The notes below the pieces were generated by a model. That model did no database searches, was not told the origin of the DNA, and worked only from the letters and a program-made list of their open reading frames with translations. From Octopus vulgaris (Eukaryota), in the NCBI GenBank assembly GCA_951406725.2, contig OX597832.1, positions 9,982,001-10,046,000 of the forward strand: 64,000 nucleotides of DNA, written 5' to 3'. The position numbers and the translations under genes were made by a program. Each line of letters starts with the position of its first letter. Positions within the stretch are counted from its first letter, which is position 1. This document shows positions 14,367 to 61,732 of this stretch, piece by piece.

Positions 14367-14660
14367 AATAATAAATATTAGGGAATAAATCCAAATTTAC
14401 AGGGAAAAAAATCAGATTTAGGATTAAATCCAATTTTATAGTAAAATATTATAAAATATTATTAGAGACAAAACCACTATTTTGCAAAACAAACATAATT
14501 TGAAACTGACTTATTGGAAGTCCAACTGAAGATTGTCGATCAAGACAAGAAATAATTGTAGTGGCGGTTTTTTTGACTATTTATTAAAATTTTATGTATT
14601 GATTAAGTCTTTCCTTGTTTGTTTTGCAAAATAGTGGTTTTGTCTCTAATAATATTTTAT
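14367..14660 (+). mobile_element. Short non-coding element in (TA)n with a 45-bp internal inverted repeat and a hammerhead motif (Penelope pLTR-like)
   Basis: 14451-14495 is the perfect reverse complement of 14616-14660; flanked on both sides by (TA)n; related sequence at 27255-27495 and 61691-61731. Confidence 0.75.
14522..14564 (+). ncRNA. Minimal type I hammerhead ribozyme motif (weak stem I)
   Basis: CUGAAGA (14526) - UUGUC/GACAA stem II - GAAA - near-palindromic stem III AUAAUUGU - GUA triplet; stem I CCAA/GUGG with a mismatch next to the core. Confidence 0.65.
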
Positions 14661-15329
14661 ATATATATATATATATATATATATACATATATATATACAT
14701 ATATATATATGTATACATATATATATATATATGTATATATATATATACACATGTATATGTGTATATATATATATATATATATAAATACATACATATACAC
14801 ATATATATATATATGTGTGTGTGTATGTGTGTATGTACGTATGTTTGTATATACCCCGACATTATACAAAAATATACCATCGAAGGAAATAATTGGGTTG
14901 AATGATACCTTTCTATTTGTTCTTTGCCTCATCTAACTACATCGATTTATTTGTAATCATAGATGCGGTGCTCTATCAAATTGTCTACGATAGAAGATAC
15001 GAAAGTGTAAATGATAATTAGCCAACACTTATATCCGATCAGAGAAAATATGACAAATAGAAAATATGAAAAATAATATTAGTGATGATAATAATAGTGA
15101 TGAAAAGAAACGGTTGAGATCTCCCTGTGTCCTGATCGATGATATATAACTGGTAAATGCGCAACATGATAACCGCTAACTCATATGAGTAACAATGAAA
15201 ATACAAAATATTGTGAATAACGGTGGTAATGAAACTGAAGCCCCTGATATAGACACACTGTTGCATGCACCCGGCAGGCTCAGATATGCTGGTCCGCCCT
15301 CCAGCCTGTCGTTATCCAGCAATGAACCG

Positions 15330-15762
15330 CCACAAAAGGTGTAGATGGACAAACAAAGCAATGCTGTGGTCATGGAATCTTACAACCTGATCAACACCGT
15401 AGACGAAAATGGTGGTCATATTAGAGTAAACCGAAAACGTATGTATGATCAGTGGAGAGAAAGAGAAAAGAAATAGTGACATATTGGTCGATGAGAGACA
15501 TATAGATGGTCTGGAAGAAGACGATAAAAATAACGGGGACATGGCAGGTGGGCAAAAGGCAATCTACGACAGAATGTAGGCAAGGCAACAAGAAAACGAT
15601 AGCGATATTACATGCAACCTTGAAAAGGTTCATCGGTGGAATTTGAACCAAGAAACGAAAAATGTGAATGAAGCTCTGAAATATATCAGATCAAAAGCAT
15701 CACAGGAACATATAATTTGAGCAAGTCAGCAAGTATTGTAGTAGAAAACGTGAATAAAATGA
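15330..15762 (+). mobile_element. R4/Dong-type ORF N-terminal fragment
   Basis: WT..SNAVVMESYNLINTVDENGGHIRVNRKRMYDQWRER and ETKNVNEALKYIR..ITGTYNLSKSASIVV resemble the N-terminal region of Dong/R4 ORFs. Confidence 0.6.
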
Positions 15763-16634
15763 TCAAATATAATTGGAGTGAGAAAAGGAAAGATCAGATA
15801 GTGTAATTCATTATGCGGCTGTCCATTTCAACAGTGCAGGGAATTAGTGTCACCAATGCCTTGCACAGGTCGGTGTAACCCCCTGCACCAAATTACACAG
15901 GGTGACCATGGCATCCCAAATCCTTGGCCGGCAATCAAGTTAGAGTTGATGTATTTACATGAAACCGTTACAGAATGTAGTGGCAGAGGAAAAACTCTAA
16001 GCATTTTGCCCGGCGTGCTAACGATTCTTATATCTTTACTACCCACAAGGGGCTAAACACAGAGGGGACAAAAAAGGACAGACAAAGGGATTAAGTCGAT
16101 TATATCGTCCCCAGTGTGTAACTGGTACTTATTTAATCGACTCCGAAAGGATGAAAGGTAAAGTCGACCTCGGCGGAATTTGAACGCAGAACGTAGCGGC
16201 AGACGAAATAACGATAAGCATTTCGTCCGGTGTGCTAAGGATTCTGTCAGCTCACCGCCTTCTCAATAATAAGAATAATGATAATAATGACAAGAAGCCT
16301 TAGCGGCAGGACGTGTTTATCGCTGCTCTAACCAGCGAGCAGCCGAAGACAGAATCACTTATACAAGAGACATATAGATGGTCTGGAAGAAGACGATAAA
16401 AATAACGGGGACATGGCAGGTGGGCAAAAGGCAATCTACGACAGAATGTAGGCAAGGCAACAAGAAAACGATAGCGATATTACATGCAACCTTGAAAAGG
16501 TTCATCGGTGGAATTTGAACCAAGAAACGAAAAATGTGAATGAAGCTCTGAAATATATCAGATCAAAAGCATCACAGGAACATATAATTTGAGCAAGTCA
16601 GCAAGTATTGTAGTAGAAAACGTGAATAAAATGA
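15494..16634 (+). repeat. Identical 269-bp direct repeat (15494-15762 and 16366-16634)
   Basis: agagacatatagatgg...cgtgaataaaatga is present twice, offset 872 bp, with no mismatch seen. Confidence 0.95.
15997..16259 (-). mobile_element. SINE family B (tRNA-like head plus Nin/Deu-like domain), with an adjacent partial tandem unit
   Basis: Minus strand: ggcggtgagctgacagaatcc...gttcaaattccgccgaggtcgacttt.cctttcatcctttcggagtcgattaaataagtaccag...gccccttgtgggtagtaaag; extra head fragment at 15997-16028. Confidence 0.88.
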
Positions 16635-16679
16635 AGAACGACGGAAAATAACTCTCAAAAGAATATGGTTAATATTAAG

Positions 16680-59225: not shown

Positions 59226-59454
59226 TTTCTTTATTACGCACAAGGGGCTAAACATAGAGGGGACAAACAAGGACATACAAAGGGATTAAGTCGATTATAT
59301 CGACCCCAGTGCGTAACTGGTACTTAATTTATCGACCCCGAAAGGATGAAAGGCAAAGTCGACCTCGGCGGAATTTGAACTCAGAACGTAGCTGCAGACG
59401 AAATACTGCTACGCATTTCGCCCGGCGTGCTAACGGTTCTGCCAGCTCGCCGCC
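59226..59454 (-). mobile_element. SINE family B, full length
   Basis: Minus strand ggcggcgagctggcagaaccgttagc...gagttcaaattcc...gcctttcatcctttcggggtcgataaattaagtaccag. Confidence 0.95.
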
Positions 59455-60052
59455 ATGGTAACTCTAATACATCATAGAGCTCCCCATCAGCTGCATAATA
59501 ACTCACCGGTTCATTCGCCTTTAATCTCAGCCTCGTATGCACCCTGGGTACAAGTTGTGTAATTGTATTAAAGAAAACCACAGGATTGATTACAATCACA
59601 ATACAAAACATACCCATACTCTACCAACCTACGACACCCATTTTGTCATTCCGATTCTGATTCCTTTCTCTCGTCGACATTTTCAATATCCCTATCTCTA
59701 TCTTAGTTAAGATGAATTCGTGTCTGTGGGTGTGGAGTTATCTACCTCTCTCTCCTACACTCTCCATCATTTATCACTTTGTCATTCTTCACCTTTCGTC
59801 GTGTCATTATAATCCTCTCAGCTTCAGCTATAGCAGTGCTGTTTCTATTCAGTTCTTTGCTTCAAAGAAACAAAACCTGCTTTGAAATGCTGGCTTCATT
59901 TCAAATCTAATAATTGTATCAGCATTTAGAAATCCCAAATCACTCCAAAGGCAATATAAGGCAGTCAAATGCTGCTTTGCTATTTGATAATTGCCCCTAA
60001 GGTCTTAGATTACGTTGATATGTTTTCTTTAACTTCTGTATTCTGCTGGACA

Positions 60053-60597
60053 TCTCTTCTTCTTCTTTTTCTTCTACTACTTCTTCTTCTTCTTCTTCTT
60101 CTTCTTCTTCTTCTTCTTCTTCTTCTTCTTCTTCTTCTTCTTCTTCTTCTTCCTCTTATTATCATTATTATTATTATTATTATTATTATTATTATTATTA
60201 TTATTATTATTATTATTATTATTCCTATTCTTCTTCTCCTCTTCTTCTTCTTCTTCTTCTTCTTCTTCTTCTTCTTTTATTATTATTATTATTATTATTA
60301 TTATTATTATTATTATTATTATTCCTATTCTTCTTCTTCTTCTTCTTCTTCTATTATTATTATTATTATTATTATTATTATTATTATTATTATTATTATT
60401 ATTATTATTATTATTTTTATTATTATTATTATTATTATTATTATTATTATTATCATTGCTTGTGTTGTCATTGTTCTCAATACCACTATTGCTATTGTTG
60501 CAGTTGCTGTTGTTGTTGTTGCTGCTGTTGTTAATATAATCATCATCATCATCATCATCATCATCACCATCATCATCATCATCATCATTACTACTAA
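60053..60597. repeat. Long compound array (CTT)-(ATT)-(CTT)-(ATT)-(CTT)-(ATT)-(GTT)-(CAT)
   Basis: Directly visible; the junction 'attcctattcttc' occurs twice. Confidence 0.95.
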
Positions 60598-61324
60598 TTC
60601 TCACAACAGGAATGAGTAGTTATTAATACACATCATCCTTTCTTCAGTTACTCATTTCAACGTGTGCTGTTGTGATCTCTGGCGCCAGAAATCTTACAAC
60701 AGATTTAATATTCCTTTGGCTTTTCCTTCCGATTGGCATTTGGTGAACTGCATTAGCGTACAAAATTAAAAATATGTGGATTCTAAATGCTTCTTCGTTG
60801 GTCATAATCCGTATCTGAGAAGTATTTAACTTGGTGAAAGCAAAAATATAATTTCTGTTCAGTAACGTATTTCTGTTCAGTATATCTACTCCAAAATTTA
60901 GAAATGAAAACTAATTAACAAAGACACTGAATAGAAAAAAACCCCAGTATAATGGTAACGCATATTATGTTATATTTTCGCGATTTGTACACCATAATTT
61001 TCAGCTGCTTTCAATATTTAAGTTTACGAAAGGGGATTATAAATTTTACTTTTTCAATAACAACACAACGAACTCAATATGTCTGTTACATATGCTAAGG
61101 TAGAACATAATGCTCATGTGAATTGCAGCAATATAATTCCTTTGAATTAAAAAATAAATGTATTGCTCTACATAACATTCAAGGGGCCTGTGTTAATGCT
61201 TATTGTGATGTACGCATGATAGTAACATTGTGGTTTCGATTCCCGGAAAGTGAGAAAATTTAATTCGGTTATATATATATATATATATATATGTGTGTGT
61301 GTTTGTGTGTGTGTATATATATAT

Positions 61325-61732
61325 ATTTTAAAATATTGTTTACGTATATTTATTAATTAATTATTTTATTACTCTATTTTATTCTTAACCTGATGAGTGG
61401 CTATATTTATATCGAAGTAATTTCAATACTACTATTGATATTTTTTACAATATTCATTTCTTAAATATAGCCACGGAACACGTGCCGTTATTCTACCAAA
61501 TATATACGTTATTATTATTATTTTGCATCGGTTTATTATTGTTATTTTATTTTTAATATTTCTATTATATGTAATTTTCCAGATGGTGTAATATAATTGT
61601 TCATTTTGAATTGATAAAATGTGTTTTTTTTTCTAATTTTTTTATATAAATTATATTTTGTGAAATTTGACTTAGTTTTTCTCAATTGAATTTTTCCCTG
61701 TAATTTAGGAATAATATTCCCTAAAATAATTA
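61325..61732 (+). mobile_element. Non-coding pLTR-like element between microsatellites, carrying the degenerate hammerhead
   Basis: Tail tttttccctgtaatttagg..tattccctaa (61691-61731) resembles the tails at 27455-27490 and, inverted, 14375-14410. Confidence 0.6.
61386..61490 (+). ncRNA. Degenerate type I hammerhead ribozyme (two core substitutions)
   Basis: UAAC-CUGAUGA-GUGGCUAUAUUUA..long loop..UAAAUAUAGCCAC-GGAA-CACGUG-CC-GUUA: 13-bp stem II, palindromic stem III, 4-bp stem I; GAAA is changed to GGAA and UC to CC. Confidence 0.7.

Follow-up and report, generated by a model that had tools for sequence, protein, structure and literature searches.

Hydra elements, a clade of Penelope-like elements (PLEs), have already been described with hammerhead ribozymes and (TA)n targets, octopus included. 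Hydra-1_Obim of Octopus bimaculoides, for instance, targets (TA)n, and its hammerhead has a palindrome of 9 nt and a U at the cut site (PMC8557442 supplement). The present analysis concerns a 64,000-nucleotide stretch of Octopus vulgaris DNA (contig OX597832.1, positions 9,982,001 to 10,046,000; hereafter the window), in which small islands with hammerhead motifs adjoin (TA)n arrays. The islands are assigned to families lettered by motif position: A 14522, B 27930, C 57785, D 58113, E 61386 and F 38533. We place a probability of about 0.75 on the reading that they are the 3′ ends of six protein-coding PLE families inserted in (TA)n, and that the island of family A is likely the reverse transcript of a spliced leader, probably primed from both cut strands. 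A first-pass annotation of this DNA had left open whether such elements were described for this lineage, a question that the O. bimaculoides entry answers only in part.

The octopus elements share with the Hydra clade of PMC8557442 one open reading frame (ORF) that encodes reverse transcriptase (RT) and then a GIY-YIG nuclease, the DKT and CxCX5C motifs, the absence of CCHH, and CxxC and CxH around a conserved E and N. Also common to both are a canonical 3′ hammerhead, (TA)n targets, inverted truncated copies and a one-sided tail. The protein of family B is closely like that of Hydra-1_Obim when compared by eye, residue by residue, and the 9-nt palindrome and the U at the cut occur in both. 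In other respects the octopus elements depart from that description. Hydra clade elements are described as shorter than 3 kb, whereas family A measures 6 kb with a 3.3-kb 3′ untranslated region (UTR), and the printed tails of 30–40 nt compare with 83–153 nt here. The 1.8-kb leader intron of family A and its hundreds of precisely spliced copies have no counterpart in the available parts of that paper.

An intron near the ribozyme is known from Penelope of Drosophila virilis, which has an internal promoter in its pseudo-long terminal repeat (pLTR) and an intron 46 bp after the start (PMC2377424) that ends at hammerhead helix I (PMC4209133). Family A is alike in its putative internal pLTR promoter, its short exon 1 and a spliceosomal intron ending at helix I. 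However, the intron is 75 bp in Penelope and 1,816 bp in family A, and Penelope is described as keeping it on transposition, whereas about half of the ribozyme-bearing ends of family A have lost it exactly. A “majority” of PLEs are said to contain introns (PMC2377424), and the class is described as keeping such introns. As to the template, Arkhipova et al. 2013 preferred an antisense RNA and left an unspliced sense RNA open (PMC3846280). Purified PLE protein from Anolis (PAc Poseidon) extends both strands from two internal RT start sites that define the tail, favors AT-rich targets and uses uncut RNA as its main substrate, all of which agrees with the octopus copies; it differs in belonging to another clade and in being studied in vitro, and the available text reports neither a strict long/short pairing per insertion nor spliced copies (PMC11167929).

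Solo hammerheads of this kind are not new either. Most were found singly, probably derived from truncated PLEs, and some were paired at short distance on opposite strands (Cervera and de la Pena 2014, PMC4209133). Metazoan non-LTR retrozymes resemble the octopus islands in their type I hammerhead, small non-coding units and link to PLE pLTRs, but they are tandem repeats with circular RNAs, whereas the octopus islands are dispersed, head-to-head and contiguous with coding elements (PMC7229834; bioRxiv 10.64898/2026.07.22.740005). A literature search combining hammerhead, Penelope-like and octopus returned Craig 2021 only; a report of Penelope-like expansions in an octopus (PMC13282606) contains no occurrence of hammerhead or ribozyme. 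In the literature searched, which largely excludes subscription papers, nothing on point was found about spliced or intronless PLE copies or about twin priming for Penelope or Hydra; Arkhipova 2003 and 2006 may mention intronless copies.

Coding parents of the islands

Because long genomic copies of all six families extend upstream into RT and/or GIY-YIG coding sequence (that of family E stitched from overlapping copies), the islands are, judged from sequence, 5′-truncated 3′ ends (pLTRs) of coding PLEs, five Hydra-type and one Neptune-type. The first-pass annotation had taken the islands for non-autonomous families, which these long copies contradict; it had proposed aligning the islands to the ends of full-length PLE ORFs, and the long copies supply coding parents for all six. 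Our own provisional view of A, E and G as non-coding, non-autonomous families was an artifact of queries favoring short copies and was likewise overturned by long coding ones. Initial searches gave 978 candidates for A, 1,417 for B, 1,757 for C, 1,020 for D, 2,276 for E and 1,925 for F, of which 40 were scored in each; these are not copy numbers. The features are listed below.

14494..14658, plus strand: family A short arm, a putative spliced-leader copy (exon 1 remnant, junction, hammerhead) ending at the short 3′ site
14512..14513, plus strand: exact exon–exon junction, where the 1,816-nt GT-AG putative intron of parent L360 is absent
14522..14564, plus strand: hammerhead A, core 14526-14532, predicted cut after 14560
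14367..14495, minus strand: inverted long arm of family A, cut short on the inner side, with an 83-nt tail reaching the long 3′ site
27787..28084, plus strand: family B, from the 3′ end of an older coding element of Hydra type near Hydra-1_Obim; core 27936, predicted cut after 27986
57443..57908, plus strand: family C short arm, comprising the 3′ UTR and hammerhead of a coding element of Hydra type; core 57791, cleavage predicted after 57869
57252..57441, minus strand: family C long arm, inverted, with a 120-nt tail
57947..58237, minus strand: family D, 3′ end of a putative Neptune-type coding element; hammerhead-like motif 58157-58113 without A9 and with a weak family stem III
61320..61735, plus strand: family E, from the 3′ end of an A-related element of Hydra type; core 61390, broken in this copy at GAAA and U16.1
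38478..38593, minus strand: family F short arm of a Hydra-type coding element, truncated within stem II (half hammerhead 38548-38530)
38593..38623, plus strand: family F long arm stump, the inverted far end of a 153-nt tail
27267..27495, plus strand: family G fold-back stump, truncated below its hammerhead; third carrier of the shared tail and a Hydra-type end related to A
2400..4450, plus strand: old and broken element of Hydra type rather than a Naiad, its RT ahead of a C-terminal nuclease; its relatives are 68–75% identical

RT followed by a C-terminal nuclease is present in an intact 838-aa frame in A and in broken frames in B, C, G and the element at 2400-4450, and the nuclease end only was seen in E and F. 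In family E, a long AT-rich 3′ UTR lies behind a nuclease 58–62% identical to that of family A (L370, L384) and was joined to the hammerhead through overlapping copies. One family G locus (L315) holds a full tandem of pLTR, ORF, UTR and hammerhead. For an element ORF, the named relatives are from Argonauta and Octopus. The tail shared by A, E and G, a likeness among three islands that was noticed at first pass and is real, points to common descent; its 29-nt motif has 5,544 exact matches in the genome.

Domain and clade assignments were made from motifs and from BLAST among the elements. The CxCX5C linker is present in A, B and C and absent from the family F copy read, and A, B and C have no CCHH cysteines between GIY and YIG. 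Family A further shows CxxC..E..N, KCRH and DKT, with KWK instead of RWK; CxxC..E..N also occurs in C and F, and CxH in A and F. Family D has a CX4CxxC linker (CTDRYCTVC) and two cysteines inside the GIY-YIG domain. It thus shares with the Neptune clade a C-terminal nuclease, the CX2-5CxxC linker and a pair of cysteines between GIY and YIG, and differs in a hammerhead-like motif without A9 and a two-pair stem III (PMC8557442). By this motif layout alone family D appears Neptune-type, and Nematis remains a candidate. A provisional label of Nematis for B, C and F was dropped in favor of the Hydra motifs.

Naiads have an N-terminal nuclease and no canonical hammerhead (Craig 2021, PMC8557442). 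A Naiad-type mobilizer had been proposed at 2600-4110, but the element spanning 2400-4450 has its RT upstream of the nuclease, and the nuclease is C-terminal there and in every parent in which both domains were seen. The relatives of the 2400-4450 element carry the C-terminal motifs of the other Hydra-type families. As a separate observation, long asparagine-rich linkers separate RT and nuclease in A, C and F (ORFs of L165, L173 and L360); such linkers were described as peculiar to rotifer Penelopes (PMC3846280).

Spliced and unspliced ends of family A

The parent of family A (L360) is a head-to-tail element of 6.0 kb whose 838-aa ORF contains no stops. Its order is hammerhead, short end, long end, an ATG about 60 nt further on, ORF, 3′ UTR, splice donor, 1,816 nt, acceptor, 13 nt and a second hammerhead. 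Other long copies are 98.8–100% identical across the ORF, and family A is a young, intact Hydra-type element. Short copies have in common a unit of 253 nt whose 5′ boundary is fixed at 36 nt above the core. In this unit the last base ahead of the GT is followed directly by the first one behind the AG, and the breakpoints carry no direct repeat. A single copy (L015) is joined 4 nt further on, at a second GT of the donor. GT-AG borders, exact removal, the lack of a breakpoint repeat and the alternative donor together argue that the 1,816-nt segment is a spliceosomal intron.

Spliced and unspliced ends are about equally common. Exact genome-wide matches numbered 455 for spliced ends (junction plus core, patterns of 30–31 nt) and 434 for unspliced ends (acceptor plus core, 26–27 nt). 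Since about half of the ends have lost a sense-strand intron exactly, their template would be a spliced sense RNA. The three main haplotypes are present in both classes (48 spliced and 24 unspliced arms). One spliced copy (L394:1500-1560) joins an A-type exon 1 to a sister hammerhead with a CUGACGA core, evidence from which a second subfamily also appears to leave spliced copies. Contigs of three presumed-RNA runs and one of unknown kind cover parts of the unit, with no strand, start or end shown.

The two classes differ in how far they extend. Among sampled spliced arms, 25 of 27 match no more than 23 nt of exon 1, and the other two, both from the same insertion, go beyond this; the 30 unspliced arms sampled retain 132 to more than 1,500 nt of intron. 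Genome-wide, only five spliced ends (four insertions) continue at least 8 nt beyond the 23-nt point, compared with 148 unspliced donors. These four insertions extend about 50, 50, 140 and 300 nt upstream of the junction, all of them stopping short of the ORF. The boundary of the 23-nt exon sits in TCA(+1)CTT, which we take to resemble an initiator. The count of 5 versus 455 suggests that splicing is mainly limited to leaders initiated at the putative promoter.

Sampled copies of families E and G (L367-L389; L212, L221, L315) have C, T or A rather than G at the expected donor +1, and these families may have lost or moved the donor. Separately, some long family A copies (L351, L357, L358) carry the 1.74-kb 3′ UTR segment containing the putative promoter and donor in two or three tandem copies, and up to four donors occur in a row at G000:C6:82988132-82993372.

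The insertions have a regular anatomy. Ends lie within 25 nt of (TA)4 in 32/32 long and 31/32 short arms of A, 14/14 and 9/10 of C, and 22/22 and 14/16 of F, and in 14/22 ends of B, 18/20 of D and 14/16 of E, against a window background of 0.04. Two 3′ ends are used past the cut site, at 86 and 169 nt in A, 36 and 156 nt in C, and 55 and 208 nt in F, giving tails of 83, 120 and 153 nt. A head-to-head arrangement occurs in 42 of 56 distinct family A insertions, with a long arm facing a short one in 41 of the 42; the outer ends are constant, the inner ends variable and joined with short overlaps. Inverted partial copies had been noticed at two islands in the window and are real at three (14367, 57252, 38623). 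(TA)n does adjoin the islands; the size range of 300–550 bp first given for them is exceeded by island C (∼655 bp) and not reached by island F (∼145 bp).

Neither arm contains the other in 15 of the 42 fold-backs (5/15 in a pattern-drawn sample), the window insertion included. In these 15 the short arm extends further 5′ than the long arm, and therefore neither arm was copied from the other. A census of the matches listed, from the first contigs (73 spliced and 100 unspliced ends), found 42 head-to-head pairs within 20 kb: 25 unspliced–unspliced, 17 spliced–spliced and none mixed. At unit position 90, whose base marks the subfamily, the two arms show no substitution relative to each other in any of the 20 insertions that allow comparison. 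The long/short pairing, the non-nested arms and the lack of mixed pairs fit two primings, one per nicked strand, on a single RNA. All spliced copies extend through the ribozyme cut site, so the template RNAs were uncut.

Hammerhead motifs and neighboring repeats

Five hammerheads and a half motif had been reported at first pass, and their cores were located at 14526, 27936, 57791, 58151 (minus) and 61390, with the half motif of family F at 38548-38530 (minus). The window is 33% G+C and rich in microsatellites. A strict type I descriptor finds two loci in it (14526, 57791), whereas 200 dinucleotide shuffles average 0.06 and none reaches two; with one core change allowed it finds three (58151 added) against 0.20, and again no shuffle reaches the observed number. 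Motif frequency is thus above that of shuffled sequence. The motifs at 27936 and 61390 fail the descriptor because these single copies are mutated (GGAA, and U16.1 to C, in the latter); the cores of their families are intact. All further CUGANGA sites, at 366, 7368, 40949 and 53059 (minus) and at 2501 and 9946 (plus), fail it. The site at 2501 lies in a degenerate hammerhead-like stretch (2490-2560) just upstream of the old Hydra-type ORF. Rfam returned no hammerhead among 144 matches in the window at E ≤ 1, its matches being microsatellites that resemble microRNA models.

Across the 2.8-Gb genome, a single pattern covering one size class (stem II spans of 46–76 nt) has at least 36,543 exact matches, compared with 297 for a reversed control. 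This corresponds to about one motif per 77 kb, a lower bound for one size class. Coelacanth and Xenopus are reported to have 4,000–9,000 minimal hammerheads (PMC4209133), numbers that the octopus exceeds. Rfam is blind to every motif in the window. In the first 30 unselected matches, stem I pairs in 24, stem II in 25 and the palindrome center in 28. Shuffling the partners predicts 9.6, 6.5 and 12.2, and none of 5,000 shuffles reaches the observed values. The 30 matches span 21 stem types, and the search pattern did not specify pairing. In these results the description of the motifs as minimal type I hammerheads of Penelope-like origin, targeted to (TA)n and present at high density in several unrelated families, is borne out.

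The CUGANGA core is found in 29/30 anchored copies of A, 21/22 of B (8 of 30 loci were dropped for want of an anchor), 21/23 of C, 21/23 of E and 14/25 of F, the remainder of which are truncated or changed. CUGANGA, GAAA and UH had been expected of every family, and the family majority has them in A, B, C, E and F and not in D. Palindromic stem III, described as common to all, is likewise present in these five and not in the majority of D; in the five it is self-complementary, with hairpin values of 0.0 and predicted self-duplexes of −6.0 to −10.3 kcal/mol. Two palindromes required correction: that of family A is ACAAUUGU, not AUAAUUGU, and that of family E (61386) is ACACGUGU. Family G has ACGAUCGU. 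The window copy of hammerhead A carries one stem I and one stem III change relative to the family majority. Cleavage is predicted only for hammerhead dimers formed through the palindromic stem III. Minimal PLE hammerheads cut weakly even when dimeric (PMC4209133), and eight of nine Xenopus hammerhead dimers were uncut (bioRxiv 10.64898/2026.07.22.740005).

Family D is the exception. All 22 rows displayed read CUGAUG(C/U)G, without A9, and stem III is AGAACU in 22/23 copies, the AGUACU palindrome being private to the window copy. The majority stem III has two pairs and a self-duplex energy of +1.4 kcal/mol. Variants lacking A9 are not mentioned in the available parts of PMC3088659, and the family D motif may be no working ribozyme. 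About 25 nt above its core, the commonest variant (L094 and others) has a donor-like GTAAGT, which would place the motif inside an intron.

Other repeats accompany the islands. Inverted pieces at 25989-26513 are 69–72% like the family B 3′ UTR and lack the hammerhead. Short repeats between (TA)n arrays at 58262-58394, 27549-27736 and 28137-28370 recur beside other PLE insertions and are likely tails of other families, in which case (TA)n arrays collect nested insertions. Segments at 13124-13552, 19247-20393, 22827-23712 (plus), 46349-46813 (minus) and 49876-50247 (plus) presumably represent non-LTR RTs or Tc1/mariner transposases, to judge from how they read. Outside the window, long open non-LTR-type RT frames of 899 and 628 aa (L163:1-2697 and L167:1241-3125) adjoin PLE copies.

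A proposed mechanism and its rivals

The proposed scheme can be set out for family A. An internal promoter at the start of the 23-nt exon would drive the mRNA for the downstream ORF, and the cap-proximal intron of that mRNA would be spliced. The nuclease would nick both (TA)n strands, and each 3′ end would prime on the same RNA, one at 86 nt and the other at 169 nt past the ribozyme cut site, with the second, upstream-moving RT assumed to displace a strand. Joining of the two cDNAs by microhomology would give a head-to-head copy with one long and one short arm. Priming at the leader pLTR would run out at the cap after 170–250 nt and leave a spliced mini-element, while priming at the downstream pLTR of read-through RNA, whose intron would rarely be spliced, would give long intron-retaining copies. 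The copied RNAs would be uncut, since the cDNAs pass through the cut site. In L1 twin priming, both nicked strands prime on one RNA to give an inverted 5′ part; the octopus start sites differ in being fixed, internal and overlapping in the sequence copied, and the target is (TA)n. We hold at even odds the general form of this scheme, in which PLEs copy sense RNA, splice the pLTR intron almost only when it is cap-proximal, produce spliced dead-end mini-copies from the leader pLTR and functional intron-retaining copies from the downstream one, and prime from both target strands at two fixed sites on one RNA.

The strongest rival, though an unlikely one, is that the short form of family A is a true non-autonomous element, in which one early spliced or deleted master spread in trans. 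Such a master would leave short ends of the kind seen here, about 455 in number, which share a fixed 5′ boundary, contain no ORF and retain the putative start site, and the haplotype G/ACGAUUGU is unevenly distributed (12/24 unspliced versus 3/48 spliced arms, the spliced sample having been drawn with GG queries). Against a single master are the three main haplotypes found in both classes, the second donor of L015, the spliced copy of the sister hammerhead variant (L394), and the variable loss of 0–12 nt of exon 1 with differing inner junctions among short copies. We consider it improbable that the head-to-head copies arose by self-priming on an antisense template, a model already in print (PMC3846280), or by snap-back of one cDNA (Arkhipova et al. 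2013). Inner junctions often have short palindromic overlaps of 2–13 nt, the short arm falls within or nearly within the long arm in 27/42 fold-backs, and snap-back also predicts no mixed pairs. However, an antisense template cannot lose a sense-strand GT-AG intron, and snap-back of one cDNA cannot yield the 15/42 insertions in which each arm holds private sequence. These points favor a sense RNA primed from both cut strands over published antisense self-priming.

Much less probable still is a retrozyme origin, with each island a non-LTR retrozyme monomer that small circular RNAs had spread. Type I hammerheads in ORF-less islands of 150–400 nt in the window would suit them, retrozymes have been proposed to derive from pLTRs (bioRxiv 10.64898/2026.07.22.740005), and three identical hammerheads in direct tandem at 534-bp spacing (G000:C1:5011305-5012441) form a candidate true retrozyme array. 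Yet none of the 56 family A insertions is a head-to-tail array of the short unit, no tandem arrays of the six units occur in the loci examined, the upstream sequence is the element's 3′ UTR or ORF rather than the unit's own tail, and copies do not as a rule begin at the predicted cut site. Coincidental matches in DNA rich in AT and repeats, to which we assign almost no probability, might be suspected from the two of five window copies that pass the strict descriptor and from the silence of Rfam; they are refuted by 36,543 motifs against 297 genome-wide and by unrequested pairing over 21 stem types in 30 matches.

Several observations weigh against the favored account of coding ends primed on sense RNA. 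In family E no single copy was followed from its ORF through to the hammerhead, family D lacks the canonical core, and Pfam did not recognize the RT of these ORFs, returning GIY-YIG in one of seven proteins at E 0.004, below the cut-off. The start site, splicing and cleavage are all read from DNA alone. Two spliced copies reach 140 and 300 nt above the junction; read-through RNA would thus sometimes be spliced, and the cap-proximal rule would not be absolute. One guessed junction for spliced family E copies had no matches, and no spliced junction was seen in the B, C, D and F loci examined, which were found with unspliced queries. Families B and D show one end type only in the copies examined, with no long/short pair. 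Of 3,941 sites compared, 60 differ between arms, which is taken here as later mutation, and concordance between arms is also expected if subfamilies were active at different times.

Solo hammerhead-bearing PLE ends, described as abundant in animal genomes, are ordinary, and what matters here is family A. What is new is that spliced and unspliced ends were counted side by side in a single young and intact family of Hydra type, a census that bears on two points of PLE mechanism, intron retention and inverted ends with a one-sided tail, that are stated as open (PMC8557442, PMC3846280). Family A amounts to a natural experiment with hundreds of events, in which spliced and unspliced ends are nearly equal, spliced ends stop at one point and no mixed pairs occur. 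It gives exact coordinates for the putative start site, the splice sites and both priming sites, and as an intact young family it supplies reagents for testing the model. The spliced island likely shows that PLEs copy their own spliced message, which would help explain why the intron is as a rule retained in full-length copies. If the scheme is true, intron retention, a hallmark of the class, would be explained without an antisense template, and two fixed priming sites would account for the tail, the inverted ends and the strict pairing of long and short arms.

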